Assembly (NCBI GenBank): GCA_046704165.1
Contig: JBJKSI010000125.1
Coordinates: forward strand, 5,672-69,671
Reading direction: 5' to 3'
DNA from: Candidatus Acidiferrales bacterium
GTDB taxonomy: Bacteria > Acidobacteriota > Terriglobia > Acidiferrales > UBA7541
DNA length: 64,000 nt
Shown in pieces: positions 5,996 to 20,973 of the stretch. Position numbers and translations under genes: made by a program. The notes under the pieces are model-generated. The model did no database searches. It was not told where the DNA came from and saw only the letters and a program-made list of their open reading frames with translations. Within the stretch, counting starts at the first letter, position 1. Each line of letters opens with the position of its first letter.

Positions 5996-7228
5996 CTATT
6001 CGGGCTCCTCGAGCATGGATTCTTCTCTCACGACAACGACGATGCCGCTTTCGGTGACGTGATAATGCTTGCGGTCTTCCTCCAGGTCGTAGCCGATCAC
6101 GGTGTGCTCGGGCAGATCGACGTGGCGATCGACGATGGCGCGGCGCACGCGGCAATGGCGGCCGACGTTGACGTGGTTATAGAGGATCGAGTCCTCGACA
6201 TCGGAAAAGCTGTTCACGCGGACGTCATAGCCGAGCACGGAGCGCAGCACGCGGCCGCCGGAGATGATCGAACCGCCTCCGATGATCGAGTCGAGCGCCA
6301 GACCCATGCGGTTGGGGTCGGAGAAGACAAACTTGGGCGTCGGATACTGATGCTGCCAGGTGATAATCGGCCAGCTTTTGTCGTAGAGGTTGAAGATGGG
6401 GCTGACGGCGACCAGATCCATATTGGCCTCGAAATAGGCGTCGATGGTGCCGACGTCACGCCAGTAGAGGGCCTCTTTCCTGTTCTCGTCGATGAAGTTG
6501 TAGGCCCAGACGCTGTGGCGATGGAGGATCTTGGGCAGGATGTCGCGACCGAAATCATGGCGCGAGAGGGCGTCCTCGGCGTCGGCGATCAGGATCGGGA
6601 TGAGCGACTGGGTGTTGAAGATGTAGACGCCCATCGAGGCCAGGCACTTGTCGGGGTGACGGGGAGAGCGCTTGGGATCGGCGGGTTTTTCCTCGAAGCC
6701 GATGATGTGGCCGCTGGAATCGACCTCGAGCACGCCGAAGCTGTGAGCGGCTTCCGCCGCATCCACCTCGATAACCGCACAGGTGACCTCGGCGCCGGTG
6801 GCCAGATGCTGATCGAGCATCTTCTGATAGTTCATCTTGTAGATGTGGTCGCCGGAGAGGACGAAAACGAAATTCGACCGCTCGCTGCCGATGGAATAGA
6901 TGTTCTGGTAAACGGCGTCGGCGGTGCCCTGATACCAGCTCTGCGAAACGCGCATCTGCGGCGGGAGGACCTCGATGAAGTCGCCGAGTCCCATCAGCGG
7001 CGACCAGCCGCGGCGGATGTGCCGGTTCAGGCTGAGCGCCTTGTATTGGCTGAGCACGAAGATACGCCGCAGGCCGCTGTTGATGCAGTTGGAGAGAGTG
7101 ACGTCGATGATGCGGTAGATGCTGCCGAAAGGGACGGCAGGTTTGGCGCGGTCGCGGGTAAGCGGCCAGAGCCGCTCGCCCTGGCCTCCGGCCAGGATGA
7201 CGGCTACGGCTTCCTGCATCGAGTGCAT
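5996..7228 (-). CDS. glgC: Glucose-1-phosphate adenylyltransferase
   Basis: 410 aa. AVILAGGQGERLWPLTRDRAKPAVPFGSIYRIIDVTLSNCINSGLRRIFVLSQYKALSLNRHI plus a C-terminal left-handed beta-helix region. The start could be the second Met (MQEAV). Confidence 0.95.
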   Translation of the reverse strand: MHSMQEAVAVILAGGQGERLWPLTRDRAKPAVPFGSIYRIIDVTLSNCINSGLRRIFVLSQYKALSLNRHIRRGWSPLMGLGDFIEVLPPQMRVSQSWYQGTADAVYQNIYSIGSERSNFVFVLSGDHIYKMNYQKMLDQHLATGAEVTCAVIEVDAAEAAHSFGVLEVDSSGHIIGFEEKPADPKRSPRHPDKCLASMGVYIFNTQSLIPILIADAEDALSRHDFGRDILPKILHRHSVWAYNFIDENRKEALYWRDVGTIDAYFEANMDLVAVSPIFNLYDKSWPIITWQHQYPTPKFVFSDPNRMGLALDSIIGGGSIISGGRVLRSVLGYDVRVNSFSDVEDSILYNHVNVGRHCRVRRAIVDRHVDLPEHTVIGYDLEEDRKHYHVTESGIVVVVREESMLEEPE

Positions 7229-7518
7229 CGGGATCGCTCCGGATGAAAGCTGCCAGCCGGACCCTTCTGCGGACCCGGCCAGATTGGTCGAAGCGTCCTA
7301 CCGAACAGGAGGGAGCCGGAAAGCGCGCCCATTGTAACAGCATTGCGGCCGTGGCCGAAGACGGGTGGGGTCCGTTTCTGGTAAATTAGTTCTTGACTTC
7401 CGAAGGGGGCTTAGCTAGTAAGGAAGCCACCAACAGAGCTCATCAGGCTCCGTGGCAACTGTGGTCCTTCGGAGACATTCCGCAAAATCAGCCCACAGGG
7501 AGAGGGGGTGAGTCTTGA

Positions 7519-7716
7519 GTGGCTGAAGTGACGATTCAGGAAGGCGAGTCTTTGGAAAACGCCCTCCGGCGCTTCAAGCGTAAGGTGCAGCAGGAAGACA
7601 TCATCAAGGAAATCAAGCGGCACAGCTACTACTTGAAGCCCGGGGAAAAGCGTCGCGCAAAAGCAGCACTCTCGCGCAAGCGACTACGGAAGAAGCTGCG
7701 CCGCGAGCAGGACTAA
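7519..7716 (+). CDS. rpsU: 30S ribosomal protein S21
   Basis: 65 aa with a GTG start. VTIQEGESLENALRRFKRKVQQEDIIKEIKRHSYYLKPGEKRRAK is the S21 signature. Confidence 0.95.
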   Translation: MAEVTIQEGESLENALRRFKRKVQQEDIIKEIKRHSYYLKPGEKRRAKAALSRKRLRKKLRREQD

Positions 7717-7867
7717 AGGCAGTTGGGTGGGGCGTGACGTTTGGCATAACCATGATCTGTGATCTGTGCCGTGGGACGGGGTGGTCCTTCCTTCGCAGGG
7801 GTTGGTTTCAGGGGCGGCCTTGGTCTCGGCATGCTGTTCCCCGGGCGGCGGGGCATCGGAGCAGCAT

Positions 7868-8188
7868 ATGGAGTTCCACGATAAGATCCTGAAGTGTGCT
7901 GAATGTGGTGCCGAGTTTGTCTTCACTGCGGGCGAGCAGATGTTTTTCGCCGAAAAGGGTTTCCGCAACGAACCCAAGCGGTGCAAGGCGTGCAAGGCAA
8001 AGCGGGCCCAGAATCCGGGTTCCTCGACGGGTATGGGAAACGGTCACCGGGTGGAAACCCGGACCACCTGCTCTCAATGCGGCAAGGAAACCACGGTGCC
8101 ATTCAAGCCGACGCAGGGGCGCCCGGTTTACTGCCGTGAGTGTTTTCAGCAACGCCGCGCGATGGGCGCCGCCAGCCGACCGTATTAA
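7868..8188 (+). CDS. Zinc-ribbon / CxxC-x17-CxxC domain protein
   Basis: The conserved part starts at ATG 7868 (MEFHDKILKCAECGAEFVFTAGEQMFFAEKGFRNEPKRCKACK ... CSQCGKETTVPFKPTQGRPVYCRECF). It has two Cys4 ribbons. The track ORF from 7766 adds a low-complexity extension that I do not trust. Confidence 0.7.
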   Translation: MEFHDKILKCAECGAEFVFTAGEQMFFAEKGFRNEPKRCKACKAKRAQNPGSSTGMGNGHRVETRTTCSQCGKETTVPFKPTQGRPVYCRECFQQRRAMGAASRPY

Positions 8189-8276
8189 AAGGAACGGCCA
8201 GCGACACCTGATCGCGTGACGGCGGCTTTGGCCGCTTCTCGGTCACCAGGCCTGTAAGATCGGTCGGGGCGGGGGT

Positions 8277-8837
8277 GTGGCGATGGCTCGATTGAGAAGC
8301 AAGAAACAGACGAAGGGGCGGCCGGCGGGCACCGCCGGCCGTCGTTCTCCGGCCGACCGCCATACGCAGATCTTGCGCGATCACTTGGTTCGCCTGCTCT
8401 GCAAGCAACAGGCCCACGCCGGTTTCGACCGCGCGGTGGAGGACTTTCCTCCGGAACTTCGCGGTGTGAGGATTCCCGGTTCGCCGCACACTCCCTGGCA
8501 ACTGCTCGAACACCTCCGCATTGCCCAGTGGGACATTCTCGAATTCTGCCGCAATCCCCGCCACGTCTCGCCGCCCTGGCCCAAGGGCTACTGGCCGCCT
8601 ACCGAAGCACCTCCCGATGATACTGCCTGGCAGAGGAGCGTAGACTCATTCCTCGCCGACCGGCAGGCAATGGTGAACCTGGTGAAGGACCCACATACCG
8701 ACCTATTCGGCAGGATTCCGCACGGCGAGGGCCAGACGATCCTGCGCGAAGCGATGCTCATTGCCGACCACAACGCCTACCACCTGGGCCAGTTCATCCT
8801 GCTGCGGCGACTGGCCGGGGCTTGGGAGACGAGCTGA
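8277..8837 (+). CDS. DinB-family (DinB_2-like) protein
   Basis: 186 aa. WQLLEHLRIAQWDILEF ... IADHNAYHLGQFILLRR matches the DinB four-helix-bundle His motifs. The start (GTG 8277 or ATG 8283) is uncertain. Confidence 0.6.
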   Translation: MAMARLRSKKQTKGRPAGTAGRRSPADRHTQILRDHLVRLLCKQQAHAGFDRAVEDFPPELRGVRIPGSPHTPWQLLEHLRIAQWDILEFCRNPRHVSPPWPKGYWPPTEAPPDDTAWQRSVDSFLADRQAMVNLVKDPHTDLFGRIPHGEGQTILREAMLIADHNAYHLGQFILLRRLAGAWETS

Positions 8838-8961
8838 AGGTCGTAACGTCGGCGCCGCTCGTTGCCGGAAACTTTGGAACAGGGACTTTTCCCCTTAGAC
8901 TGGTTGAGCCTAGAATGCGTGTGTCGATTCTCGGCCGCCGGGTCGAGGAGAGACGGAAACG

Positions 8962-9405
8962 ATGATCCGCTTCCTCAGAGATCGGGACGGCTCAGGTAAG
9001 GAGCCGCGGAACTGGGCGCTGGGACCGCTGGAGATCCGGGTGATGGGTGTGGTCTGGACCGGCGGCGAATACTCGGTGCGCGAGGTGGCGGAGCAGTTGG
9101 ACCGGCCCCTGGCGTATACCACCGTGATGACCACGCTCGATCGCCTCTACAAGAAAGGTTTTCTCACCCGACGGAAAGCCGAACGTGCCTTCCTCTATTC
9201 CCCGCGGCTGCCGCGCCGCGAATGGGAGCGCAAGATTGCAGGGGACCTGCTCAAGGGATTCCTGGCGGGACTGGGGAATTCACGCGAGCAACTGGTGTCC
9301 TTTCTGGTAGACGCGGTGGGGCAGCACGACGAAGAACTGCTTGCGGAACTCGAGAAGAAGATTCGGACGAAACGGAGAAAACTTCTCCGAAGGGGCCCGT
9401 CATGA
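8962..9405 (+). CDS. BlaI/MecI/CopY-family transcriptional repressor
   Basis: 147 aa. Winged-helix segment LGPLEIRVMGVVWTGGEYSVREVAEQLDRPLAYTTVMTTLDRLYKKGFLTRRKAERAFLYSP. The stop overlaps the next gene's start (ATGA). Confidence 0.85.
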   Translation: MIRFLRDRDGSGKEPRNWALGPLEIRVMGVVWTGGEYSVREVAEQLDRPLAYTTVMTTLDRLYKKGFLTRRKAERAFLYSPRLPRREWERKIAGDLLKGFLAGLGNSREQLVSFLVDAVGQHDEELLAELEKKIRTKRRKLLRRGPS

Positions 9406-10382
9406 TCTCGCCTTACTTGCTGCGGCTGCTTTGCCTCTCGTTCGCCACATTTTTCCTGATCTACTTGGCGCTGAACGTGGCGAGCCTGGCCGGCGCGCGC
9501 GCGGCGATCCGGCTGGCCAAACGGCTGCGGCCGCAGGTGGCGGCGCGGCTGCTACTGGCGCTGCGGCTGGCGCCGCTGGCCGTTGCACTGTTCCTGGTGC
9601 TGGGATTGTGCCTGCCGAGTTATCTGCTGCTGGAGCCGGAAGCGCGCGTCGAACGGATCGGACTGGTGTGCCTGGGCGCGGCGCTGGCCGGCGCGGCCGG
9701 CTGGGCGATTTCCGCGTGGCGGGCGCTGCGCGCGATGGCCGTCTCGCTGGCGGATGCGCGACATTTTCGGCACGCGGGACGGTTGCTGTGCGTGGCGGGA
9801 CGGTCGCTGCCGGTCTACGTGATCGACAGCGAGAAACCGCTGCTGGCGTTGGCGGGGATTTTGTGGCCGCGGATCGTAGTTTCTCGGGGCATCGTGAGCG
9901 CGCTTTCTCCGGAACAAATGGACGCGGCGCTTGCCCACGAGCTGGCGCATTGGACTTCGCGGGACAATTTGAAGCGGCTGCTGCTGCTGTTGGCGCCGGA
10001 TCCGTTTCCCTTCTGCCACGGAGCCGGACCGTTGGACCGCAGTTGGGCGAAATTCACCGAATGGCTGGCGGACGATCGGGCGGTAGCGGGCGATTCCGGA
10101 CGTTCGCTCTCGCTGGCCTCAGCACTGGTGCGCGTGGCACGGCTGGGCGCGCCGGCCAGGCACGCGCCGCTGATGGCCACGCTGGCCGCAGCGGACGACG
10201 ATCTCTCAATCCGGGTCGACCGGCTGCTGCGACCCGAGCCGGTTTGCCAGGAGCCTCGCCGACAGACTCGAATGCTGGCGGGCGGCGCGGTAGTGGCGGC
10301 GCTGGGCCTGCTGGCATTCCTGATGCTCCAGCCGGGCACGCTGTATTCGGTCCACCAGCTTCTGGAATTCCTGATTCACTAA
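9402..10382 (+). CDS. BlaR1-like M56-family membrane metalloprotease / signal transducer
   Basis: ATG 9402 overlaps the blaI-like stop. N-terminal TM helices (MISPYLLRLLCLSFATFFLIYLAL). HEXXH zinc motif AHELAHWTSRDNLKRL. No C-terminal penicillin-binding sensor domain is evident. Confidence 0.8.
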   Translation: MISPYLLRLLCLSFATFFLIYLALNVASLAGARAAIRLAKRLRPQVAARLLLALRLAPLAVALFLVLGLCLPSYLLLEPEARVERIGLVCLGAALAGAAGWAISAWRALRAMAVSLADARHFRHAGRLLCVAGRSLPVYVIDSEKPLLALAGILWPRIVVSRGIVSALSPEQMDAALAHELAHWTSRDNLKRLLLLLAPDPFPFCHGAGPLDRSWAKFTEWLADDRAVAGDSGRSLSLASALVRVARLGAPARHAPLMATLAAADDDLSIRVDRLLRPEPVCQEPRRQTRMLAGGAVVAALGLLAFLMLQPGTLYSVHQLLEFLIH

Positions 10383-10439
10383 TCGACGAGACAAGTTGAC
10401 TTGCAGGTGCGGTCGGATTTCGTACGGGCGAATTCTGCG

Positions 10440-10643
10440 AATGGTGACCGAGACGCCGTTGCTGTCGAAGTTGGCGGCGTAGACCATGTTGGTGACCGTA
10501 TTGACCGCGACGGCATCGGGATTCGAACCAACCGTGGGCGAGGCGACCACGCTGTTGGTCGAGCCGTCGATGACCGAGACGGTGCCGCTGGTCTGGTCGG
10601 CAACGTAGATCGTGTTGGTTACCGGGTTCACCGCGATGGCCTC
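10440..10643 (-). pseudogene. Relic fragment of a YVTN-type beta-propeller repeat gene
   Basis: Minus-strand reading gives (stop)EAIAVNPVTNTIYVADQTSGTVSVIDGSTNSVVASPTVGSNPDAVAVNTVTNMVYAANFDSNGVSVTI, about 1.5 YVTN repeats. A TGA lies 4 codons upstream of the only start (GTG 10631). There is no SD. The frame then runs without similarity into the 3' end of the convergent blaR1-like gene. Confidence 0.45.
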
Positions 10644-10688
10644 TCACGCACTCACTGTCAACCCGGTGGAGGGATGAAAACTTTCCGA

Positions 10689-10734
10689 AAAAAGCAACGG
10701 CCGGGCGAGCGAACTGAGTTTCCGGCTTCGCTCG
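10689..10734 (-). terminator. Hairpin plus T-run downstream of the pseudo-receiver gene
   Basis: CGAGCGAA / TTCGCTCG 8-bp stem (10706-10713 / 10727-10734). On the minus strand it is followed after about 11 nt by TTTTTT (10689-10694). Confidence 0.4.
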
Positions 10735-10767
10735 ATTGTGGTTCGGGACGTGGAGACGCGTGTGGGC

Positions 10768-11178
10768 TCAAGCGGCGACGGCGCGGGAGTTGGGTTGTTG
10801 GGCCAGCGCGGCGAGCTGGGCCTCGTTGACGATGCGTTCGATTGCCTCGAGGAATTCGGCCGGCCGGAGGGCCGGAGCGCCGAGACACGGGCTGCCGCGG
10901 TCGAGGATTGGCACCCACCAGAATCCGTCTTCCACAGGGAGGCGATAGAAAGCGGAGCAGCGCGAACGTTCGATTCGGGAGATCAGAGGACTGGCGAGGT
11001 GCAGGGGATGGATGCTGAGGAGCAGGTCGAATGAGTCAGAGGCGGCGAGCGCCAAGGCCTGCTCAACGCCGAGAGCCACCGTGCACGTGCAGTGGAGAGA
11101 CTCAAGGAGCCTGCGCACGCGAAAGAGGCCGTTCGCCGCTTCCCCGAGGAAAAGCGCTCTTGCCGTCGCGTGACCCAT
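10768..11178 (-). CDS. Hypothetical protein with degenerate receiver (REC)-like fold
   Basis: Third-codon-position GC is high. RALFLGEAANGLFRVRRLLESLHCTCTVALGVEQALALAASDSFDLLLSIHPL follows the REC beta-alpha pattern, but the acidic pocket is GE and the phospho-acceptor position is Ser. Start taken as ATG 11178; the track ORF extends to 11301. Confidence 0.4.
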   Translation of the reverse strand: MGHATARALFLGEAANGLFRVRRLLESLHCTCTVALGVEQALALAASDSFDLLLSIHPLHLASPLISRIERSRCSAFYRLPVEDGFWWVPILDRGSPCLGAPALRPAEFLEAIERIVNEAQLAALAQQPNSRAVAA

Positions 11179-12057
11179 GACTACCACTTCCGACAGGTTT
11201 GCCGTTTCCGCGGCGGTTTCTGAGTTCCATTTGAGCGGCCAAAAAATGGGAAGGCAGCGGTTGGCGGTACGATGGATCCAGCCCTGCGGCTGGTACGCCA
11301 TTACCGGAAGGCGTTTTCTTCCTTATCCGTACTCAGCCGCTGCCTATTCTCAGAGGCCGCGGATTGGCAGGTACGCTTCGAATCCCGTAGCTAGCGGGGG
11401 CGGGAATTCGCCGTACCCTGTCGCGAGAAGGGCGCAACCCCCTTTTCGTGCCGGATCGCGACGCTGGTCCTTTCGACCGGTATCGACGCCATCCGTTTTG
11501 CCTCTGAACCAGCACTGCCTAGGTGAGCACGCGAGATGCCAATCCGGCGGGCGGTACGCCTCCGCAAGTCCTTCCTGCGCTGGGCGATGTCTAGGTCGCA
11601 AATGGCGGCGAATCCGCCAAGAGAGACGCTTGGGGACTTTGCCCCAAGCGAGCGAAGAGTGACTCACCGGCGCGGCAAAACACAGGCTGCGTCTCACTGA
11701 ATCCAAAGACACCCGCAAGAGGAATCCTCCGAACGCATTAAACGCAGAACGCTTTTGCTGACCGCTGTCGCGAGCTGCTTTCACAGTGAACTTGGGCGAA
11801 GGGAAATAGTCGCTTCCGCCTTGGGAGTTTTGACGCTGCGCCGTGTGAGTTTTCCCGGGGCAGTTCTCGGGTAGATGCAAAGCGAAACGGTAATCACCAG
11901 ACATTCAAGGACTTGGGTTCATTCCCGAGAAGCTCTCTTTTGGGGACAGGCGTGCACGAACTTTGGCAAAGGCGAAGGCCGGGAAACGCTTCCAGCGGGG
12001 GAAGACGTCGCCGGCCAAGCGCAGCCGCCGCCCGGCGGCCGAGCAAGGAGAAAGACC

Positions 12058-12513
12058 ATGAAAGTAAAAAAGGCGATGACGAAAGAGCTGCAGTGCTGCA
12101 CTCCGTTCGACACGGTAGTGGACGCCGCCCGCCTGATGCAGACACACGACGTGGGCGCCATCCCGGTGATCAAGGACAAGCAGTCGATGCAGTTGGCCGG
12201 CATCATCACCGATCGGGACATCACATGCCGGGTGACCGCGGCTGGCAAGGCGCCGGGAGAAGTTCGCGTGCAGAAGGCGATGACGCCGAATCCGGTGATC
12301 TGCCATCCGGAAGACAGCCTGGACGATTGCGCGTTGCAGATGCAGAAGCACCGGGTGCGGCGTTTGCCGGTGCTCGACGAGAAGGGCGTGCTGGTGGGCA
12401 TCATCGCTCAAGGGGACATCGCGCGGCACCTGAAGGCCGAGAAGGTAGGCCGGACGGTGGCGAAGATTTCGATGCCAATGCGGCCGCGGCCCCTTCGCCA
12501 CGCCGCGGCTTGA
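12058..12513 (+). CDS. CBS-pair (Bateman domain) protein, Hrp1-like
   Basis: ATG 12058 lies 7 nt after AAGGAG. Two CBS motifs (AMTKELQCCTPFDTVVDAARLMQTHDVGAIPVI...GIITDRDI and AMTPNPVICHPEDSLDDCALQMQKHRVRRLPVLDEKGVLVGIIAQGDIARHL). No other domain. Confidence 0.85.
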   Translation: MKVKKAMTKELQCCTPFDTVVDAARLMQTHDVGAIPVIKDKQSMQLAGIITDRDITCRVTAAGKAPGEVRVQKAMTPNPVICHPEDSLDDCALQMQKHRVRRLPVLDEKGVLVGIIAQGDIARHLKAEKVGRTVAKISMPMRPRPLRHAAA

Positions 12514-12598
12514 GCGAAAGCTGGAAAAGCGGTCCGGCCCGGCTTTTGCCGCGGCAGGGGATCGGCGGCGCGCCGGGCCGTGGCCGGGAAAGGCAGCC

Positions 12599-13780
12599 AT
12601 GTTGGAGATGAGTGAAGTGCGCGCTTTTTCGAGTCTGCCGCGGCCGGTGTTGACAGCCTACCTGGATACCCACCCGGCGAAAGCATCGAACCACGGCCCG
12701 ACACCCGAATACCTGACGTGGATGAACGCCGCGGGAAAGGCCTTGTTGACCGGAGTGCCGGCCGAGGAACGGAAGCTGCTGGAGGAGCAGCTGGATCGCG
12801 TGGAGCTCTACCTCCGTGACCGGGTGCGGACGCAGCGGGGGATGCTGGTGTTTGCCGGCGCGGAGTTGTGGCAGCCGGTGCCGCTGCAGGTGGAGGTACA
12901 AAACGAGCTGCATTGGGGCCGACCGGCGCTTTCGCAGTTGCTCGGCCTGCTGAGCCGGTACAAGCCGTACGGCGTGGCGGTGGTGGACCTGAGCGGGACG
13001 CGCTTTTTCCGCTACCACCTCGGCGAACTGAGCGAAATCGAGGAGAAGAAGTTCGAGATCGATATTTCGCACTGGCGGAAGAAGGATATGGGGAAGTTCT
13101 CCCACAAGGACATCACGAAATCGCGGGGAGTGGACCGCGACAACTTCGAGCGGCGGATGGAGGAGCAATACAAGAAGCTGTGCGCGGAAACTGCCCAGCG
13201 CGCGCACCAACTGGCGGAAACACACGGCTTGGTTGCGTTCTTTCTGGTGGGCGAAGACCGGCTGATCGAGGCGATCGCGGAGTCTTTACCGGCTGATTTC
13301 CGACCGCGCGTGGTGAAGATCCAGGAAGACCTGGCGAAGGTAGTCTCGCCGGCGCTGGAAGCGAGGCTGGAGCCGCACGTGGAGGAATGGCAGCGGGCGC
13401 AGCAGTCGGAAATGGTAACATCGCTGCTCGAAGGCAAGCGCGGCACCGTAACCGGACTCGATCGGACTCTCGATGAATTGCAGAACGGAATGGTTCGGTT
13501 GCTGCTGCTCGCCGCCGATCTGGATCCGACACTGCGGCAGTGCACACGCTGCGGCCGGACCGACCGGGCGGATGGGTCCGTCTGCCTCTACTGCGGCGCC
13601 CAGTGCCGAGCGGCGAGTTTGCGCGACGTGTTGCCGGAGTTGGCGTGGAAGCACGGCGTCGAAGTGGAAATCGTGGACGAGAAGACGTCGGAACGACTGC
13701 GGGAGGCGGGCAGCATCGGTGGCTGGCTGCGGCTGCCGAAGCAGAACAGCGCCCGACGCGCGAGCCGGCGAGCGGGATAG
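12599..13780 (+). CDS. Bacterial eRF1/Pelota-like (baeRF-type) protein with C-terminal zinc-ribbon insert
   Basis: 393 aa with a three-domain layout. The central domain is YGVAVVDLSGTRFFRYHLGE...ISHWRKKDMGKFSHKDITKSRGVDRDNFERRMEE. The eRF1_3-like C-domain is VTGLDRTLDELQNGMVRLLLLAADLD..CTRCG..VCLYCG...GVEVEIVDEKTSERLREAGSIGGWLR. There is no GGQ tripeptide anywhere in the protein. Confidence 0.7.
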   Translation: MLEMSEVRAFSSLPRPVLTAYLDTHPAKASNHGPTPEYLTWMNAAGKALLTGVPAEERKLLEEQLDRVELYLRDRVRTQRGMLVFAGAELWQPVPLQVEVQNELHWGRPALSQLLGLLSRYKPYGVAVVDLSGTRFFRYHLGELSEIEEKKFEIDISHWRKKDMGKFSHKDITKSRGVDRDNFERRMEEQYKKLCAETAQRAHQLAETHGLVAFFLVGEDRLIEAIAESLPADFRPRVVKIQEDLAKVVSPALEARLEPHVEEWQRAQQSEMVTSLLEGKRGTVTGLDRTLDELQNGMVRLLLLAADLDPTLRQCTRCGRTDRADGSVCLYCGAQCRAASLRDVLPELAWKHGVEVEIVDEKTSERLREAGSIGGWLRLPKQNSARRASRRAG

Positions 13781-13859
13781 CGGGGAAAAGCCGCCGACGG
13801 GCCCTTCAGGCAGCGCATTGAAGCGGTAAGCGCCAGGGGAAGGGCGAGCGGCCGGATCG

Positions 13860-16800
13860 ATGAGCAGGCTCGCCAGGATCGTGAAAAGCAAGAGCGCGGG
13901 CTACGTTGCCGCGGTGCTGGGCGTGGCCGCAGCGACGGTGGTTTGCGCCGCGGTGCGCGGCGACATCACCGCCGGAACGGCCGCGCTCGCAATGCTATTG
14001 GTGGTGCTTTTCGTGGCGGCCGGCTGGGGCAGCCGGCCTGCATTCCTGGCATCGATCGTCGGAGTGCTCAGCCTGAGTTTCTTCTTCCTGCCGCCCATCT
14101 ACAGACTGACCATGCGCGATCCACGAAACTGGATCGACCTACTCGTTTTTTTTGTCACCGCATTCATTGCGGGTCAACTCTCCGAGCGATCGAGACGGCG
14201 TGAACAGGCGCTGCGCGAAAGCGAGGCAAACCTCAATACGGCGCAGAAGATCGCCGAGCTGGGAAGCTGGCACCTGGACATTGCACACAACCGGCTGACA
14301 TGGTCGGCGGAAGTGTTCCGCATGTTTGGAATGCCCGAGTCGGCGGTGCCGACCTACGAAATATTCTTGGACAAGGTGCATCCGGAAGACAGGGAGTTGG
14401 TGGATCGGGCCTGGCAGGATGCTCTGACGGGCGGGCACTACGACATCGAACATCGTTTGCTGGTGAGTGGCGAAGAGAAATGGGTGCGGGAAATGGCTCG
14501 GGTACGGCTGGACGCAAGCGGCAATGCCATCGAAGGAATCGGTACGGTGCAGGACATCACCGAGCGGAAGCGGAACGAGGCGGCGCTGCGGAGATCGAAC
14601 GAGGAGATGCAGGACCTGGCGCGGTTGCAGGCGACCGTGGCCGATCTGGGACAGCGAGCACTGAAGCACAGGTCGCCGGAGGAGGTAGCCGACGACGTGA
14701 CGAGCCGGGTGGCGCTGACGCTGAACGTGGACTATTGCAAGATCCTGGAATTCCTGCCGGACCGGCAGGCACTGCTGCTGCAATCGGGCGTGGGCTGGAA
14801 GCCGGGTAGCGTGGGCCACGCGACGGTGGGGATCGGCGCGGAATCGCAGGCCGGATACGCGCTGGAGACAGAGCAGCCCGTGGTGGTGCAGGACTTGAAA
14901 ACGGAAAAACGCTTCCAGGGGACTTCACTGCTGCACGAGCACGGCGTGGTGAGCGGCATCAGCGTCGTAATCCCAACCAAGGAAGGTCCCTACGGCGTGC
15001 TCAGCGTGCATTCGCGCACACGGCGGACCTTCAGCACGAACGAGGTGAACTTCCTGCAGTCGGTGGCCAACGTGCTCGGCTCGGCCATCGAGCGCCAGCA
15101 CGCCGAGATTGAACTGTGGCGGATCAACCGCGCGCAGCGCGCACTGAGCAAGTGCAACGAGGCTCTGATCCGGGCGAGTGACGAGACGGCGTTGCTACAG
15201 CAGGTGTGCTCGATCGTGGTGGAAGAGGCTGGCTACCGCTTCTGCTGGGTGGGGCGCGCGGAGCAGGACGAGCCGCGAACAGTGCGGCCGGTGGCCAAGG
15301 CGGGATTCGAGGCCGGGTACCTGGACAGCCTGGCAATCAGCTGGGCCGACACGGAGCGGGGGCGCGGGCCGGCGGGGTTGAGCGTGCGAACGCGCCAGAC
15401 TGTGGTGGCGAGGAACATCGCTACCGATCCGAAAATGGCGCCGTGGCGCGAGGAGGCGCTGAAGCGGGGCTATGCGTCGTGCCTGGCGATTCCACTGCTG
15501 ATCGATTCGAGCGTGTTCGGCTCGATCCTGATCTACGCCTCGGACCCGGAAACCTTCGGCCCCGAGGAGGTGAATCTGCTGACGGAGATGGCCTCGGATC
15601 TTGCATTTGGCATTACCACGTTGCGGACGCGGGCCGAGCGCGCCCGGGCGGAAGAGGAGGTGCGCAGGCTGAACGCGGAGCTGGAGCAGAGGGTGGCGCG
15701 CCGCACGGCACAGCTGCAGAAGGCGACCCGCGAGTTGGAACAGGCACGCGAGCGGGAGATGGAGGTGGGTTCGCGCATCCAGCAGACGCTGCTGCTCGAT
15801 CAGCCGCCGCAGGACGTGCCCGGACTGGGTGTGGCGGCGCTGACGGTGCCCTCGCAAAAGATCGACGGCGATTTCTACATTTTCCTGAAACACGGGGACG
15901 AGTCGATGGACGTGATTCTGGGAGACGTGATGGGGAAAGGCGTTCCGGCGGCATTGCTAGGATCGGCCACGAAGAGCCAGTTTCTGAAAGCGTTCACGCG
16001 CCTGCTGGACCTTTCGAAGGGGCGGGCGCTGCCGGAACCGCGTGAAGTGGTGATGCTGGCGCACGCGGGGCTGGTGCGCGAGTTGATCAACCTGGAGAGC
16101 TTCGTGACGCTGTGCTACGCGCGGCTGGATGCGGGCCGCCGGCGAATGGACCTGGTCGATTGCGGGCACACGGGAATCCTGCACTGGCGCGGCCGGACGG
16201 GGTTGTGCGAGATGCTGCACGGCAAGAACCTGCCGCTCGGCGTGGTGGAAGGGGAGATTTACGAACAGTTCACCGTTCCGGTGGAGGAGGGCGACCTGCT
16301 GTTGCTGTTCTCCGACGGGATCACCGAGGCGCGGAACGCGGCCAAGGAGCCGTTTGGCATCCAGCGACTGGAAGAATGCGTGCGGGCCTATCGAGAACTG
16401 GACCTGAGCGAACTGCTGGAGGCGATCCGGCGGGAAGTGGTAGCCTTTTCCGGCTCCGAGCAGCTGACGGACGATCTGACCAGCGTGGTGATCCGCGTGG
16501 CGGAGGCCGTGCGGCCGGTGAGGACCGCGGAAACCGCGATCCGGAGCGAGTTGACGCAGTTGCGGCGTGCGCGCGAATTCGTGCGTCAGTTCTGCCGGGA
16601 CCGCTCCGTTCCGGCACTGGGCCAGAAATGCGTGGAAGGGCTGGAGTTGGCGGTGAGCGAGGCGGCCAGCAATATCATGAAACACGCCTACCGCGGCCGG
16701 ACCGACCAGTGGATCGGGCTGGACGGAGAAGCGTTTGAGGATCGGGTGCTGTTCCGGCTGCATCATTTCGGCGAGCCGTTCGATCCGACGATGGCGAAAC

Positions 16801-16964
16801 CACCGGTGCTGGACGGGTCTTGCGAATCAGGGTTTGGTGTCTATCTGATTACTCAAATTACCGACAGTGTGCGTTACTATCGCGACGAGCGCGGACGAAA
16901 CTGCGTGGAGCTTATGAAGATCTGCAAATCCCCCGTACGTGAAAGCGAGACTGCATGGAACTAG
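13860..16964 (+). CDS. Multidomain sensor: DUF4118-like TM module, PAS, 2x GAF, coiled coil, PP2C/SpoIIE phosphatase, RsbW/SpoIIAB-like HATPase
   Basis: 1034 aa. KdpD-type membrane N-terminus. PAS (ELGSWHLDIAHNRLTWSAEVFRMFG...IEGIGTVQDITERKRNE). Two GAF regions. SpoIIE motifs (IDGDFYIF, ILGDVMGKGVPAALL, LLLFSDGITEA). C-terminal anti-sigma-kinase-like N-box and G-box (LAVSEAASNIMKHAY, ESGFGVYLI). Confidence 0.85.
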   Translation: MSRLARIVKSKSAGYVAAVLGVAAATVVCAAVRGDITAGTAALAMLLVVLFVAAGWGSRPAFLASIVGVLSLSFFFLPPIYRLTMRDPRNWIDLLVFFVTAFIAGQLSERSRRREQALRESEANLNTAQKIAELGSWHLDIAHNRLTWSAEVFRMFGMPESAVPTYEIFLDKVHPEDRELVDRAWQDALTGGHYDIEHRLLVSGEEKWVREMARVRLDASGNAIEGIGTVQDITERKRNEAALRRSNEEMQDLARLQATVADLGQRALKHRSPEEVADDVTSRVALTLNVDYCKILEFLPDRQALLLQSGVGWKPGSVGHATVGIGAESQAGYALETEQPVVVQDLKTEKRFQGTSLLHEHGVVSGISVVIPTKEGPYGVLSVHSRTRRTFSTNEVNFLQSVANVLGSAIERQHAEIELWRINRAQRALSKCNEALIRASDETALLQQVCSIVVEEAGYRFCWVGRAEQDEPRTVRPVAKAGFEAGYLDSLAISWADTERGRGPAGLSVRTRQTVVARNIATDPKMAPWREEALKRGYASCLAIPLLIDSSVFGSILIYASDPETFGPEEVNLLTEMASDLAFGITTLRTRAERARAEEEVRRLNAELEQRVARRTAQLQKATRELEQAREREMEVGSRIQQTLLLDQPPQDVPGLGVAALTVPSQKIDGDFYIFLKHGDESMDVILGDVMGKGVPAALLGSATKSQFLKAFTRLLDLSKGRALPEPREVVMLAHAGLVRELINLESFVTLCYARLDAGRRRMDLVDCGHTGILHWRGRTGLCEMLHGKNLPLGVVEGEIYEQFTVPVEEGDLLLLFSDGITEARNAAKEPFGIQRLEECVRAYRELDLSELLEAIRREVVAFSGSEQLTDDLTSVVIRVAEAVRPVRTAETAIRSELTQLRRAREFVRQFCRDRSVPALGQKCVEGLELAVSEAASNIMKHAYRGRTDQWIGLDGEAFEDRVLFRLHHFGEPFDPTMAKPPVLDGSCESGFGVYLITQITDSVRYYRDERGRNCVELMKICKSPVRESETAWN

Positions 16965-17314
16965 CTACCGACACTACCGGCAACGTAGCCGTGGTCGAGA
17001 TCCCCGTTGACGAGTTGGATGCCAGCAACGCCGGAGAACTGAAGCGCGACATCGCTCCGGTGCTGGAAAGCCACACACGTCTGGTGATCGACATGAGCCG
17101 GCTGCGTTTCATCGATAGCTCCGGGCTGGGCGCGATGCTCTCGTGCTTGCGGCAGGTGAGCGCCAAACAGGGCGACCTGAAGCTGTGCTGCATGACGCGG
17201 CAGGTTCGCGGCACGTTCGAACTGGTGCGCATGCACCGCATCTTCGACATCTTTCCCACGCGGGAGGAAGCCGTGCGCGCATTCCGTGCTCAAGGGGACG
17301 GGCACGCGAAATGA
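16955..17314 (+). CDS. STAS-domain anti-sigma-factor antagonist (SpoIIAA/RsbV-like)
   Basis: 119 aa. LVIDMSRLRFIDSSGLGAMLSCLRQV carries the conserved phosphorylatable Ser in DSSGLG. It overlaps the sensor gene by 10 nt and glgP by 4 nt (ATGA). Confidence 0.9.
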   Translation: MELATDTTGNVAVVEIPVDELDASNAGELKRDIAPVLESHTRLVIDMSRLRFIDSSGLGAMLSCLRQVSAKQGDLKLCCMTRQVRGTFELVRMHRIFDIFPTREEAVRAFRAQGDGHAK

Positions 17315-19764
17315 ACCCCTCGGTCAACGCCGTGGACGAGGCGGCAGCGAGCATCGAGGAAGCAATCTGCCGGCACGCGAAGTATTCGCTGGGTAAGGCG
17401 TGGCCGGATCTTTCCCCGCAAGACCGGTTCGCAGCGGTAGCGCTGGCCGTGCGCGACCGGATGGTGGACGGAATGCTGGAGACCGAGCGGCGGTGCGGGC
17501 GGGAAGACCCCAAGCGGTTGCATTACCTCTCCATCGAATTCCTGATCGGGCAGTCGTTGGGCAATAACCTGCGAAACCTGGGCCTTCGGGACGCGTGCCG
17601 GCAGGCTCTGCGGAACCTGGGCGCCAGCCTGGAGGAAATCGAGGAGAGCGAGCCGGACGCAGCGCTGGGCAACGGTGGGCTGGGGCGGCTGGCGGCCTGC
17701 TTCCTGGATTCGCTGGCCACGCTGCGTCTGCCCGGCTACGGCTATGGGATCAACTACGAGTACGGCTTGTTCAAGCAGGAGATCGACAACGGATACCAGC
17801 GGGAGAAGCCGGAGAACTGGCTGGCGCAAAGCAGTCCCTGGCAGATCGAGCGGCCCGATGAAGCCTGCATAGTGCCGGTCTACGGACGGATCGAGCACGG
17901 CGTGGATCGCCAAGGCGTCTACAACCCGATGTGGATGGACTGGAAGCTGCTGATCGGTGTTCCCTACGACATGCTCATCCCGGGTTACGGCGGGGAGGCG
18001 GTGCACGTTCTACGGCTCTACGCGGCGCGATCGTCCCACGATTTCGACATGCAGATCTTCAACGACGGTGATTATTTCAAAGCCGTGGAGCAGAAGATCG
18101 CCTCGGAGACCGTGTCGAAGGTGCTTTACCCTTCGGACGCAGTGATCGCCGGGCACGAGCTGCGGCTGGTGCAGGAGTACTTCCTGGTGGCCTGCGCACT
18201 GCGCGACATCGTGCGCCGGTTCGAGCAGCGGCACACGGACTTTCGCGAACTGCCGGGCAAGGCAGCCATCCAGCTGAACGACACGCATCCGGCGCTGGCG
18301 GTGACGGAGCTGATGCGAATCCTGGTGGACGAGAAGAGCCTGGAGTGGGAAGAGGCGTGGGAGATCACGCGGGCCACGCTGGCCTACACGAACCATACGC
18401 TAGCGCCGGAAGCGCTGGAGAAATGGCCGGTACCACTGCTGGAATCCATGCTGCCGCGACACTTGCAGCTGATCTACGAAATCAATGGGCGTTTCCTGCG
18501 GCAGGTGGCCGCGGCCTTTCCCGGCGACAGGGCCCGGCAACAGCGCATGTCGCTGATCGAGGAATCGGCGACGAAGCAGGCGCGCATGGTGAACCTGGCA
18601 ATTGTTGGCAGCCATTCGGTGAACGGCGTTTCGAAGATTCATACGAAGGCGTTTGAGACGATGCTGGTTCCCGATTTCTACGAGCTGTGGCCGGAGAAAT
18701 TTTCCAACAAAACGAACGGCATCACGCAGCGGCGCTGGCTGCTCGAGGCCAATCCGCGGCTGGCGGACCTGATCACGTCGACCATCGGCGACGGTTGGAT
18801 TACCGACCTGGACCGGTTGCGGGAACTCGAACGATTTTCCGAGGATTCGGGCTTTCAATCGGCTTTCGCCAAGATCAAGCGCGCGAACAAGGAGCATCTG
18901 GCCGAGATCATCCGCGAAACCACTCGGGTGGAGGCGAACCCGGATTCGCTCTTTGACGTCCACGTGAAGCGGATTCACGTTTACAAGCGGCAACTGCTGA
19001 ATGTGATGCACGTGGTGCACGAATATCTCTCTCTGATCGAGGACGGAACGACGCCGGCGGCGCCGCGAACCTTCCTCTTCGCCGGCAAGGCGGCGCCCGG
19101 CTACCGTCTCGCCAAGCAGATCATCAAGCTGATTCACAATGTGGCGCGCGTCATCAATCGCGACCCACGGGCGGCCGAGTGGATCAAGGTGGGTTTTCTG
19201 CCGGACTATCGTGTGTCGCTGGCTGAGAAGATCTTTCCCGCCGCCGACCTCAGCGAGCAGATCTCGACCGCCGGGACGGAAGCTTCAGGCACGAGCAACA
19301 TGAAGCTGGCGCTGAGCGGCGCGATCACTATCGGTACGCTCGACGGGGCCAACATCGAAATTCTCGAAGAGGTAGGCAGGGAGAACATGTTCCTCTTCGG
19401 CAAGCAGACGGCGGAGCTTCGGGCGATGCGCGAAGCGGAATCCTACCACCCGCAGGAAATCTGCAAGCGGGATCCTCGCGTACAGCGGGTCGTCGAAGCG
19501 TTCAATTCGCGGCTGTTCTGCCCCGGGGAGCCGGGCCTTTTCGCCTGGGTGCCTCCGATGCTGCTCGATCCCGGCGACAAATACTTCCACCTGGCCGATT
19601 TTCCAGACTGCCTCGGGGCGCACGAGCGAGCGGCACAGGCGTACGTCGATACGGGCCGGTGGCGGCGCATGTCAATCCTGAACGTGGCGCGCATCGGGAG
19701 GTTTTCGAGCGATCGCACGGTGGCGGAGTATGCGCGGGAGATCTGGCAGCTGAAAAGCGTATAG
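17311..19764 (+). CDS. glgP: Glycogen/maltodextrin phosphorylase
   Basis: Start ATG 17311 (MNPSVNAVDEAAASIEEAICRHAKYSLGK). YLSIEFLIGQSLGNNL, NGGLGRLAACFLDS, and the PLP-Lys motif EQISTAGTEASGTSNMKLALSGAITIGTLDGANIEI. The track ORF from 17143 is an out-of-context upstream extension. Confidence 0.95.
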   Translation: MNPSVNAVDEAAASIEEAICRHAKYSLGKAWPDLSPQDRFAAVALAVRDRMVDGMLETERRCGREDPKRLHYLSIEFLIGQSLGNNLRNLGLRDACRQALRNLGASLEEIEESEPDAALGNGGLGRLAACFLDSLATLRLPGYGYGINYEYGLFKQEIDNGYQREKPENWLAQSSPWQIERPDEACIVPVYGRIEHGVDRQGVYNPMWMDWKLLIGVPYDMLIPGYGGEAVHVLRLYAARSSHDFDMQIFNDGDYFKAVEQKIASETVSKVLYPSDAVIAGHELRLVQEYFLVACALRDIVRRFEQRHTDFRELPGKAAIQLNDTHPALAVTELMRILVDEKSLEWEEAWEITRATLAYTNHTLAPEALEKWPVPLLESMLPRHLQLIYEINGRFLRQVAAAFPGDRARQQRMSLIEESATKQARMVNLAIVGSHSVNGVSKIHTKAFETMLVPDFYELWPEKFSNKTNGITQRRWLLEANPRLADLITSTIGDGWITDLDRLRELERFSEDSGFQSAFAKIKRANKEHLAEIIRETTRVEANPDSLFDVHVKRIHVYKRQLLNVMHVVHEYLSLIEDGTTPAAPRTFLFAGKAAPGYRLAKQIIKLIHNVARVINRDPRAAEWIKVGFLPDYRVSLAEKIFPAADLSEQISTAGTEASGTSNMKLALSGAITIGTLDGANIEILEEVGRENMFLFGKQTAELRAMREAESYHPQEICKRDPRVQRVVEAFNSRLFCPGEPGLFAWVPPMLLDPGDKYFHLADFPDCLGAHERAAQAYVDTGRWRRMSILNVARIGRFSSDRTVAEYAREIWQLKSV

Positions 19765-19772
19765 CGGGGATT

Positions 19773-19804
19773 TTCCGCCGGAACTTTCGAGGTGTGCGGC
19801 GGAA
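19773..19804 (+). terminator. Weak hairpin after glgP
   Basis: TTCCGCCG / CGGCGGAA 8-bp stem with a 16-nt loop, starting 9 nt after the glgP stop and followed by GGGAATTTTA. The large loop makes this tentative. Confidence 0.3.
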
Positions 19805-19882
19805 GGGAATTTTAGAGATAGAGGGTTGAAGCTCCCCGCTACAGGGTTCGAGCACTGGGCACTGGCACGAGGGAATCGTTAA

Positions 19883-19955
19883 TGGGCCCGCCTGGATTCG
19901 AACCAGGGACCGATGGATTATGAGTCCACTGCTCTGACCGCTGAGCTACGGGCCC
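19883..19955 (-). tRNA. tRNA with CAT anticodon (elongator Met, or Ile2 if lysidine-modified)
   Basis: The reverse complement GGGCCCGTAGCTCAGCGGTCAGAGCAGTGGACTCATAATCCATCGGTCCCTGGTTCGAATCCAGGCGGGCCCA folds as a cloverleaf. Acceptor stem GGGCCCG/CGGGCCC, D stem GCTC/GAGC, anticodon loop CTCATAA, T arm CCTGG-TTCGAAT-CCAGG. A paired 1:72 base pair argues against an initiator tRNA. CCA is not encoded. Confidence 0.9.
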
Positions 19956-19965
19956 CGCAGCCCTA

Positions 19966-19994
19966 ACTATAGGCGATGCCGCGGTTTCTTGCAT
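19966..19994 (-). promoter_or_regulatory. Candidate sigma70-type promoter for the tRNA
   Basis: On the minus strand: ATGCAA, 17 nt, TATAGT. The -10 element ends about 10 nt upstream of the tRNA 5' end. The -35 element is weak (3/6). Confidence 0.35.
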
Positions 19995-20199
19995 CAGGCG
20001 CGTGCGTCGGCGGGCTGTTGAAAACGGCCAGTTGGGGAGCGGACGGCTGCCGGGAAGGACACCGGACTGATTGCTGCGGCCCGCCGATTCCCGCTAATCT
20101 GATAAGATGTCTGGCATGGGGGGGGTGCCGAGCTGATGGAGTTGCCTTCTCCTAGGCCGGTTATGCGGTGATCAGAAACCGGGCGCCACACGAGGTACC

Positions 20200-20973
20200 G
20201 TGCGCAGGGAGAACGACGTCGCGAAGCTGGACACGCCGGCTTCCCGAACCTCGCAGGAGCGACCCGCAGACCGGGAGAGTAGTTTGAAAACGAATTGCAC
20301 GGAATGCCCCATCCTCAACAACACACTTTTCCGCAGCCTCTCGACCGACCAGGTGTCGAGGTTCAATTGCATCTTTCGTCCCGCGCACTACCGAAGAAAC
20401 CAGATCATTTTCTTCGAGGGTGGCGCGGCCGATCACCTGTTCGCCATGAATTCCGGACTGGTGAAACTGGTGAAGTCGCTTGAGAACGGCCGGGAGCGCA
20501 TCACGCGCGTCCTCTTTCCCGGTGAGCTGTTCGGCCTGGAGGCGCTGAGCGAAGAGACGTATCCACTGACGGCGGTGGTGCTGCACGATGCCAAGATCTG
20601 CGCCATTCCCTGCCGGGAGTTTTTCTCTTTCCTGCACGGCAATTCCGATATTTCGCTCGACATGATCCGTTTCCTGCTGGGCGAACTCTCCCGGATGCGG
20701 AAGCAGATGACGGCGATGAGTTTCAAGGACGCCCGAGCGCGGGTGGCAATGTTCGTACTATCGCTGCTCTCGCCGGAGTTGTTGGGTAGTGGGCAGGCCT
20801 GCTCGCTCACGCTGCCCGTGACGAGCCACGAGATCGGCGAGATCCTGGAGCTCTCTCCCGAGACAGTCAGCCGGGCCTGGAGCTTCCTGCGTAGGGAAGG
20901 CCTGATTGAAAAGCGTGGCCGGGAACTGGTGATTCAGAACCTGCAGGGACTCGAAGGAGCGGCCAGCCGCTGA
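20200..20973 (+). CDS. Crp/Fnr-family transcriptional regulator
   Basis: cNMP-binding-like barrel (IIFFEGGAADHLFAMNSGLVKLVKSLENGRERITRVLFPGELFGLEAL) and C-terminal HTH (TSHEIGEILELSPETVSRAWSFLRREGLI). The start is uncertain; an in-frame TTG at 20284 follows GGGAGAG. Confidence 0.85.
   Translation: MRRENDVAKLDTPASRTSQERPADRESSLKTNCTECPILNNTLFRSLSTDQVSRFNCIFRPAHYRRNQIIFFEGGAADHLFAMNSGLVKLVKSLENGRERITRVLFPGELFGLEALSEETYPLTAVVLHDAKICAIPCREFFSFLHGNSDISLDMIRFLLGELSRMRKQMTAMSFKDARARVAMFVLSLLSPELLGSGQACSLTLPVTSHEIGEILELSPETVSRAWSFLRREGLIEKRGRELVIQNLQGLEGAASR

Follow-up and report, generated by a model that had tools for sequence, protein, structure and literature searches.

A Balon-type protein with an intact zinc ribbon and no catalytic glutamine, encoded in an acidobacterial genome: a probable ribosome hibernation factor

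Msmeg1130 and Rv2629 of mycobacteria and Balon of Psychrobacter are ribosome hibernation factors that bind the A site, as established by cryo-electron microscopy and biochemistry (Helena-Bueno et al., Nature 2024, PMC10901736). Here we describe a homologue of these proteins, encoded in a stretch of 64,000 nucleotides from Candidatus Acidiferrales bacterium (GenBank assembly GCA_046704165.1, contig JBJKSI010000125.1, positions 5,672 to 69,671 of the forward strand); the whole stretch is referred to as the window, and the homologue as the window protein. It belongs to the bacterial families (baeRF) of the archaeo-eukaryotic release factor 1 (aeRF1) superfamily. An earlier note on this DNA, made from the sequence alone, had called the baeRF proteins essentially uncharacterised, which was true in 2019 and is outdated after 2024, given Msmeg1130, Rv2629 and Balon (PMC10901736).

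The N domain of Balon contacts A1492/A1913 with an HP motif, for which the text of the paper gives no residue numbers, and the C domain has a unique beta-hairpin, or beta-loop, contacting EF-Tu(GDP) (PMC10901736). Msmeg1130 is a translation-inhibiting hibernation factor without the GGQ motif by which aeRF1 triggers peptide release (PMC10901736). In aeRF1 proteins, the catalytic GGQ loop follows three strands and precedes a long helix (Burroughs & Aravind, PMC6514570). A zinc ribbon is often inserted in the C (Pelota) domain of aeRF1, and at the same site a two-strand insert, perhaps a degenerate ribbon, occurs in many baeRF families (PMC6514570). Family 10 was singled out as a baeRF family with a conserved Gln in the catalytic loop (Burroughs & Aravind 2019, PMC6514570).

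Our preferred reading, held with a probability of about 0.72, is that the window protein, a member of the bacterial aeRF1 (baeRF-1) clade and of Pfam family 10, is a hibernation factor of the Balon type that occupies the ribosomal A site without hydrolytic activity. The observations that carry this reading are the fold, the family, the absence of both the loop Gln and the NIKS motif, the position and conservation of a zinc ribbon, and the gene neighbourhoods. The gene and its parts are as follows.

12599..13780 (+): gene of the Balon-type / baeRF family 10 protein, 393 amino acids, ATG start (open reading frame, Pfam, NCBIfam, Foldseek)
12599..12961 (+): N-terminal domain, residues 1-121 (secondary structure of the model, conserved columns, motif search)
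12962..13348 (+): middle (RNase-H-like) domain, approximately residues 122-250, the region of the baeRF_family10 match (Pfam; strands, loop and long helix of the model)
13052..13156 (+): loop at the GGQ position, residues 152-186, without Gln (alignments, motif search, model)
13127..13141 (+): G177-V178-D179-R180-D181, with D179 in place of the Gln of sister lineages (translation; tree with residue states)
13394..13732 (+): C-terminal eRF1_3 / L7Ae-like domain, approximately residues 266-378 (partial TIGR03676 match; alignment profile against 3ir9 and 4af1)
13541..13597 (+): Cys4 zinc ribbon C315-x2-C318-x10-C329-x2-C332 (CTRCG-x9-CLYCG), residues 315-333 (motif search, alignments)

The N-terminus of the 393-residue protein coincides with that of 21 close homologues, which together with it form a 22-sequence alignment, A1. 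A wider set comprises 153 distinct full-length relatives and locus translations. Below, P-numbers (e.g. P0028) denote relative proteins and L-numbers (e.g. L001) denote loci of relatives.

The Pfam model PF18854 (baeRF_family10), which describes the middle domain, matches residues 109-240 with 63.4 bits, the gathering cut-off being 27.1, and according to precomputed data this domain is present in 35 of 35 homologues; the window protein also exceeds the Pfam cut-offs of baeRF families 2 and 5. The NCBIfam model of the MSMEG_1130 family ribosome hibernation factor is matched over its full length (positions 20-386 of its 387 by residues 17-378, E 1.9e-17). When the part of Msmeg1130 shown in the HMMER alignment of the profile search (residues 77-374) was reassembled and scanned with Pfam, it scored 126 bits on baeRF_family10; the window protein thus has its Pfam family in common with a hibernation factor studied by experiment. 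A single-sequence search of the PDB yields marginal matches only (Balon with E 0.0066 and a spurious coiled-coil spike construct), so that a profile search was needed: the clade profile finds Msmeg1130 at E 7.5e-16, and hhalign of the clade against Msmeg1130 gives a probability of 97.4% over 283 columns. No eRF1_1/2/3 or Pelota-type matches are found among the Pfam matches of the window protein, and its sequence match to aRF1 is confined to the C domain (Pfam, NCBIfam, PDB profile search), where TIGR03676 (aRF1_eRF1) partially matches residues 266-366 and the A1 profile matches the aRF1 C domains 3ir9 and 4af1. The best Pfam, NCBIfam and PDB sequence matches being baeRF or Balon homologues, the lineage appears to be bacterial and distinct from both aeRF1 and Pelota.

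The structure was modelled by AlphaFold2 fed with A1. The model has a mean predicted local distance difference test score (pLDDT) of 86.7 and a predicted template modelling score of 0.79, and only the loop centre (approximately residues 160-180, pLDDT 54-55) and the C-terminal tail are poorly defined. The best Foldseek matches in the PDB are 8v9l_z and 8v9j_z, that is, Msmeg1130 on the M. smegmatis 70S ribosome, with template modelling scores (TM) of 0.79 (query) and 0.83 (target), E 1.6e-24, and a root-mean-square deviation (rmsd) of 3.5 Å over 396 columns. They are followed by Rv2629 and P. urativorans Balon (TM 0.63-0.67, up to 0.69 for Balon), then by aRF1/eRF1 (TM 0.22-0.50), with Pelota/Dom34 (TM 0.21-0.41) the lowest in the superfamily. 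From this ranking, the predicted domain arrangement is that of ribosome-bound Balon. The three-domain, eRF1-like layout read by the earlier note from the letters is confirmed by Foldseek, and both computational checks that it had proposed turned out in favour of the superfamily: Pfam places the protein in baeRF_family10 above the cut-off, and the predicted fold matches the Balon homologues, then aRF1/eRF1.

In the model, strands 124-129, 133-140 and 143-151 are followed by the loop 152-177 and a long helix 178-209. By this order of strands, loop and helix, the loop occupies the topological place of the GGQ loop as described in PMC6514570. Residues 158-186 read HWRKKDMGKFSHKDITKSRGVDRDNFERR, exactly the stretch quoted previously for this position, and the motif search agrees with the earlier statement that there is no GGQ: neither GGQ nor G..Q occurs in the whole protein, and residues 114-189 contain no Gln. 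Three residues of the loop (S157, W159 and G177) are identical in all sequences of A1, and six more (K161, K162, G165, R176, D181 and R186) are conserved in 90% of them or more; positions 167-173, at the loop centre, vary in length and sequence. The conserved flanks point to a constraint on the loop for something other than Gln-dependent catalysis. With no Gln in the loop, the protein is best read as a ribosome binder without hydrolytic activity. The NIKS motif is also absent from the whole protein (motif search). The N domain has a different signature, N102-E103-x-x-W106-G107, which is invariant in A1 and is followed by the nearly invariant P109.

To place the loop in its family, the clade profile was searched against 1.84 billion representatives, giving 3127 matches at E<=1e-3, and the full-length ones were aligned. 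Three states of the loop are seen beside the conserved Gly. Core family 10 (P0127, which scores 142 bits on baeRF_family10, and P0184) has K-Q-G-G-[WL]-S-Q. Most acidobacterial relatives have R-G-[ST]-Q-R-D, often after G-H-V-T-G-Q. The terminal clade, formed by the window protein and P0002-P0019, has R-G-[AVST]-D-[RH]-D; the proteins of L013 and L014 have Ala at position 179. In the neighbour-joining tree the Asp179 clade is nested within the Gln-bearing radiation. This nesting, together with the Gln of the sister lineages, indicates a derived loss of Gln in the clade of the window protein rather than a family that has always been without it. A conserved Gln of the kind that the earlier note allowed it might have missed is visible in the alignment, in sister lineages (R-G-S-Q-R-D); the clade of the window protein has Asp instead. 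The replacement of His166 by Lys (G-H-V to G-K-[VF]) appears one step earlier, with Gln179 kept, in P0022, P0039, L018 and L022, and Q179D is confined to the Lys166 background (P0001-P0019); the order of H166K and Q179D may reflect compensatory or coupled changes.

The Gln described for family 10 is absent from the loop of the window protein, which has D179. The core family 10 proteins P0127 and P0184 share with it the Pfam model, the Cys4 ribbon and the invariant Gly at the junction of loop and helix; they differ by the candidate catalytic Gln (K-Q-G-G-[WL]-S-Q), which has no counterpart in the window protein and its separate acidobacterial clade. Msmeg1130 reads A-G-Q at the Gly aligned to G177 (HMMER, hhalign). 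As it is nevertheless a hibernation factor, a nearby Gln is by itself no evidence of hydrolase activity; and since Msmeg1130, a member of the same Pfam family, also has no GGxSQ, the loop Gln does not define baeRF_family10 as it was built.

The second conspicuous feature is the zinc ribbon of the C domain. Residues 315-333 read CTRCGRTDRADGSVCLYCG. The Cys4 motif listed in the earlier note is real, with a spacer of 9 residues between CTRCG and CLYCG, not 10. All four cysteines, C315, C318, C329 and C332, are invariant in the 22 sequences of A1 and are kept in nearly all members of the 153-sequence set; there they are missing from one distant clade, which has no insert, and are incomplete in a few outliers. 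Such conservation shows that the ribbon is held by selection and not by chance. The clade profile aligns CxxC...CxxC with its counterpart in archaeal aRF1 (C domains of 3IR9, E 4.7e-5, and 4AF1, E 2e-3), and with a Cys-less stretch of equal length, VRYVGTVGADGSLYADGEIAPHSHAATKDSR, in Msmeg1130 (HMMER and hhalign). Judging by these alignments, the ribbon is an ancestral aRF1 feature that has been retained. The earlier note had named it an insert; it is no novel one, as it aligns to the archaeal ribbon (profile search, hhalign, PMC6514570). We further infer from the sequence alignment and the description in PMC6514570 that the ribbon is the likely intact counterpart of the EF-Tu-contacting beta-loop of Balon. 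Otherwise, archaeal aRF1 (3IR9, 4AF1) has the same domain order and a directly aligned zinc-ribbon C domain, but it is a stop-codon-dependent release factor with GGQ and NIKS, both absent here.

The window protein shares with Msmeg1130 and Rv2629 (PDB 8V9J/8V9L/8V9K) the three-domain fold seen on the ribosome, the lack of GGQ and NIKS, the baeRF_family10 domain (Msmeg1130), a C-domain insert at the same site (Msmeg1130), and the stress or dormancy context with a CBS-pair neighbour, Hrp1 in mycobacteria. The differences from Msmeg1130 are the intact Cys4 ribbon against a Cys-less insert, the loop SxW[RK]KK...RGxDRD against PFGQAPQERAGQMRE, and the N-domain His-Pro, which is not conserved in the window protein. 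P. urativorans Balon (8RD8/8RDV/8RDW) has the same superfamily fold and architecture (Foldseek E 3e-16 to 9e-15); it is more distant, with 11-12% identity, an rmsd of 7.5-7.8 Å and no sequence-level match in the PDB searches, and by the description in the paper it has a beta-loop rather than a zinc ribbon. The features of the Balon family (as delimited in PMC10901736 and PMC13324472) found in the window protein are the three-domain aeRF1-like fold, the absence of NIKS and GGQ, the bacterial lineage and the stress-type neighbourhood. The insert of equal length at the position aligned with that of Msmeg1130 is a Cys4 ribbon, and may correspond to the EF-Tu-binding element of the family. The gene is a fairly ordinary addition to the Balon family; its product differs from the solved homologues by its intact zinc ribbon and by the conserved motif of its loop.

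By homology, ribosome binding, contact with EF-Tu and lack of hydrolysis would be expected, and a role of the neighbouring CBS protein may be added on the same ground. Under starvation, hypoxia or other stress, the protein would occupy the ribosomal A site. The N domain would touch the decoding centre without reading mRNA, because it has no NIKS, and the middle domain would push the basic and aromatic loop (S157-x-W159-R-K-K ... R176-G177) towards the peptidyl-transferase centre, where peptide release would be impossible because the loop has no Gln. The C domain would present the zinc-stabilised insert where Balon has the beta-loop contacting EF-Tu(GDP). As an outcome, ribosomes would be reversibly silenced and stored. 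For the CBS-pair protein encoded directly upstream, sensing of nucleotides or of the energy state is a plausible role, as is that of a co-factor.

Several points weigh against this assignment. The identity of the window protein to Msmeg1130 is 18%, and both NCBIfam equivalog cut-offs are missed by far: 63.3 bits against 480 for NF052288 (MSMEG_1130 family) and 32.1 against 320 for NF052289 (Rv2629 family), so the window protein is, by these scores, a homologue of the two families and no equivalog of either. The HP motif of Balon was not located, the His-Pro of Msmeg1130 being aligned to Ser-Gln, S112-Q113 (HMMER, hhalign). The loop expected to reach the peptidyl-transferase centre has a pLDDT of about 55. 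At the same time its sequence is strongly conserved, and thus it may do something more specific; poorly conserved loops go with the inactive baeRF families (Burroughs & Aravind). The experimental record of Balon-type factors covers only members without a zinc ribbon. Finally, the seed scan found no HPF/RaiA gene at the window protein's own locus.

The neighbourhood of the gene comprises the following features.

11820-11858 and 11938-11957 (+): pair of conserved non-coding blocks upstream of the CBS gene (alignment A2 of five orthologous loci)
12058..12513 (+): stand-alone CBS-pair protein, 151 amino acids, 85 nucleotides upstream of the baeRF gene (two Pfam CBS domains, E 8e-30)
13860..16964 (+): DUF4118-PAS-GAF-GAF-SpoIIE(PP2C)-HATPase_c_2 sensor, 1034 amino acids, 79 nucleotides downstream of the baeRF gene (Pfam)
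16955..17314 (+): STAS protein resembling anti-sigma antagonists, its start overlapping the end of the sensor gene (Pfam STAS, 73 bits; coordinates of the open reading frames)
~17311..19764 (+): glycogen phosphorylase, its likely ATG overlapping the STAS stop codon (open reading frame, translation, PF00343 on the syntenic orthologue)

The CBS, baeRF, sensor, STAS and glycogen phosphorylase genes lie on one strand with short gaps or overlaps. The whole five-gene arrangement is syntenic in L001/L002 and L010, and the CBS-baeRF pair alone also in L003=L011 and L012. The CBS protein adjacent to the gene, pointed out in the earlier note, is thus a conserved upstream neighbour in the closest species: its orthologue is in the same position in L001/L002, L003=L011, L010 and L012, on the same strand and at a distance of 85-89 nucleotides where measured (window, L001, L003). 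The sensor is syntenic only in L001, L002 and L010. It combines an RsbW-like HATPase_c_2 kinase and a PP2C phosphatase in one protein of 1034 amino acids whose gene overlaps the STAS gene (13860-17314); the sensor-STAS pair looks like a compact partner-switching stress module, which stands beside the baeRF gene only in the closest relatives.

The CBS gene leads to an extension of the hibernation-factor reading, compatible with it rather than exclusive. The CBS-pair protein might bind adenine nucleotides and gate or join the A-site factor, so that the two proteins form an energy switch, with the Cys4 ribbon adding zinc or redox sensitivity. We regard this as possible and tentative. An orthologous CBS gene lies directly upstream in the D179-clade loci having upstream sequence, including L010 and L012, and other CBS-pair genes are found near more distant relatives (L017, L019, L025, L027, L034-L037). 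The similarity of the CBS protein to Rv2626c/Hrp1 spans its whole length (E 5e-17), and one mycobacterial copy of Balon has Hrp1 in its vicinity (PMC10901736). However, many other CBS pairs score alike, such pairs are very widespread as generic sensors, and the resemblance to Hrp1 and Sri is one of domains. As CBS modules are parts of the archaeal hibernation factors Hib/HibA (PMC13324472) and Sri/Dri (PMC13004131), a CBS link is reasonable, though gene adjacency is the sole evidence for it; besides, these archaeal factors carry four CBS domains or an HPF fusion and not a single pair, and two close relatives with Ala179, L013 and L014, have no CBS gene within 6 kb. In these two loci (L013, 6001-7173; L014, 6001-7206) the homologues, without a CBS neighbour, are 50-51% identical, and the genome bins are labelled Candidatus Dormiibacterota and Patescibacteria group, which points to horizontal transfer or mis-binned acidobacterial contigs.

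The neighbourhoods of the relatives were covered by a seed-protein scan of 36 genome loci from GTDB species representatives, of metagenome loci and of the window. Near the relatives, about 17 loci have Usp genes and about 13 have CBS-pair genes; Crp-type regulators are present in six. In L006, RtcB with Archease and a glycogen phosphorylase are nearby. Fusions of HPF (S30AE) with a cold-shock domain adjoin the gene or lie near it in four loci of the seed search, as follows.

L007, 7201-7845: HPF/RaiA (Ribosomal_S30AE)-cold-shock fusion (re-scanned, both Pfam cut-offs passed)
L022, 7360-8058: the same fusion (re-scanned, both Pfam cut-offs passed)
L018, 4823-5524: the same fusion (re-scanned, both Pfam cut-offs passed)
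L020, 3831-4545: HPF-cold-shock fusion split across two open reading frames (seed search only)

The relatives adjoined by these fusions, or lying near them, are Gln-bearing. The gene neighbours of Balon include RaiA, RtcB and the CBS hypoxia factor Hrp1 (PMC10901736), linkage of baeRF and HPF genes has been reported (PMC6514570), and chimeric hpf genes often adjoin Balon genes (2025 preprint). The neighbourhoods of the relatives match these stress-operon contexts and point to dormancy, not rescue.

The last observation bears on the next reading, a rescue factor akin to Pelota/Dom34 that would bind stalled ribosomes in their empty A site and help the subunits to dissociate or be recycled, without hydrolysis. 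The Pelota structures are significant Foldseek matches (E 1e-8 to 1e-4) with the same three-domain superfamily fold; like Dom34, which binds the A site without hydrolysis, the window protein is a Gln-less member of the superfamily; a Dom34-like non-catalytic rescue role was considered for baeRF-1 (Burroughs & Aravind, PMC6514570); and RtcB with Archease occurs near one relative. Yet no other branch of the superfamily matches the predicted structure as poorly as Pelota (TM 0.2-0.4, with Balon at 0.8), there is no Pfam match to Pelota or eRF1_1, and the rescue context of Pelota, with Hbs1 and ABCE1, is not the context seen here: the genes nearby belong to dormancy (Usp, HPF fusions, CBS, glycogen phosphorylase), with no known rescue or quality-control gene among them. 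Bacteria are not known to have ABCE1, with which Pelota splits ribosomes. Those members of the same Pfam family that have been studied by experiment are hibernation factors (PMC10901736). On balance, a rescue role seems unlikely. Hence, of the Pelota-like, non-hydrolytic binder proposed in the earlier note, the non-hydrolytic part stands, there being no catalytic Gln, and Pelota gives way to Balon as the closer analogy (TM 0.2-0.4 against 0.79-0.83).

A broader scenario for the acidobacterial radiation, which we offer as speculation with little probability, would combine these elements. The Gln-bearing sisters, some of them beside HPF fusions, might still be peptidyl-tRNA hydrolases acting on stalled or hibernating ribosomes, whereas the clade of the window protein (H166K, then Q179D) would have become a steric blocker of the A site with a dedicated CBS partner, a two-protein energy-sensing module like the archaeal CBS-HPF factors, its ribbon being EF-Tu-facing or sensitive to zinc or redox state.

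For the window protein itself, an alternative peptidyl-tRNA hydrolase or release factor for special circumstances, in which another loop residue positions the water, is very improbable: such a role was proposed for the Gln-bearing members of family 10 (Burroughs & Aravind), the Gln is present in core family 10 (K-Q-G-G-[WL]-S-Q) and in the sisters (R-G-[ST]-Q-R-D, often with G-H-V-T-G-Q) and the loop flanks are under strong constraint, but the window protein and its clade have no loop Gln, with Asp (or Ala) at 179, there is no NIKS-like reader of stop codons, and Msmeg1130 with its A-G-Q is reported as a hibernation factor (PMC10901736).

Other families were considered and rejected. A class-1 release factor of the aRF1/eRF1 type is excluded by the absence of both GGQ and NIKS and by the TIGR03676 score of 16.7 against 234.7 bits. 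The same holds for Vms1/VLRF1 including acVLRF1, as acVLRF1 scores 19.8 bits at a cut-off of 27.1 and G..Q is absent from the protein. Host_attach (PF10116) is not among the Pfam matches of the window protein at E<=1; one Gln-bearing relative, P0028, reaches this model with 30.4 against 26.7 bits. PADLOC gives no defence-system match for the baeRF, CBS, sensor or STAS proteins, which leaves a role in conflict or defence unsupported.

The conserved non-coding blocks upstream of the CBS gene read TTGGGAGTTTTGACGCTGCGCC..GAGTTTTCCCGG and TTTTGGGGACAGGCGTGCAC, and are possible promoter or operator elements. The second block has a GG-N10-GC spacing resembling the sigma-54 -24/-12 element, with a poor match to the consensus. 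A GC-rich inverted repeat, GCCGCC-N4-GGCGGC, is situated at 12023-12040, just 5' of the ribosome-binding site. Promoter and terminator scans of 11000-17500 yield no sigma-70-like site, and terminator-like sites are fewer than expected from shuffled sequences. Scans of the window with the sigma-54 and Crp/FNR consensus sequences give matches at or below chance, none of them convincing upstream of the CBS and baeRF genes. Rfam finds in the whole window one tRNA only (19883-19955, minus strand) and no riboswitch or leader. This tRNA follows immediately after the glycogen phosphorylase gene, and is itself followed by a Crp/FNR-type regulator (cNMP_binding and HTH_Crp_2) at 20137-20970 (+).

Further upstream on the same strand are genes for a double treble-clef zinc-finger protein (zf_Tbcl and zf_Tbcl_2; 7868-8188) and a DinB_2 protein (8277-8837), and a pair comprising a BlaI/BlaR-like repressor and an M56/M48 peptidase (8962-9405 and ~9400-10382). 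In the syntenic locus L001, the gene of ribosomal protein S21 is situated just before the zf_Tbcl, DinB_2 and BlaI-M56 genes. Within positions 1-20000 of the window, the GC skew is strongly positive (0.14-0.19) up to 8 kb and again from 12 to 18 kb, and the cumulative curve climbs over most of the window, which is consistent with most genes there being on the plus (leading) strand.

The finding leaves present knowledge standing; it improves the annotation and raises two side questions that can be tested. The Balon-type factors were recognised only in 2024, and all three structures come from Psychrobacter and mycobacteria, with a Cys-less insert in the C domain. With the window protein one could usefully ask whether the insert that faces EF-Tu functions alike as a real zinc ribbon. 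The Gln-to-Asp clade and its Gln-bearing sisters form a natural pair for testing peptidyl-tRNA hydrolysis by bacterial aeRF1 homologues, a question raised by Burroughs & Aravind (2019) to which our literature searches found no answer. In its conserved CBS neighbour, the gene has a parallel to Hrp1 of mycobacteria and to the hibernation factors with CBS modules in archaea. Finally, the gene extends the Balon family to soil Acidobacteriota, slow growers for which dormancy is central, and does so in the zinc-ribbon-bearing form, linking Balon directly to archaeal aRF1.

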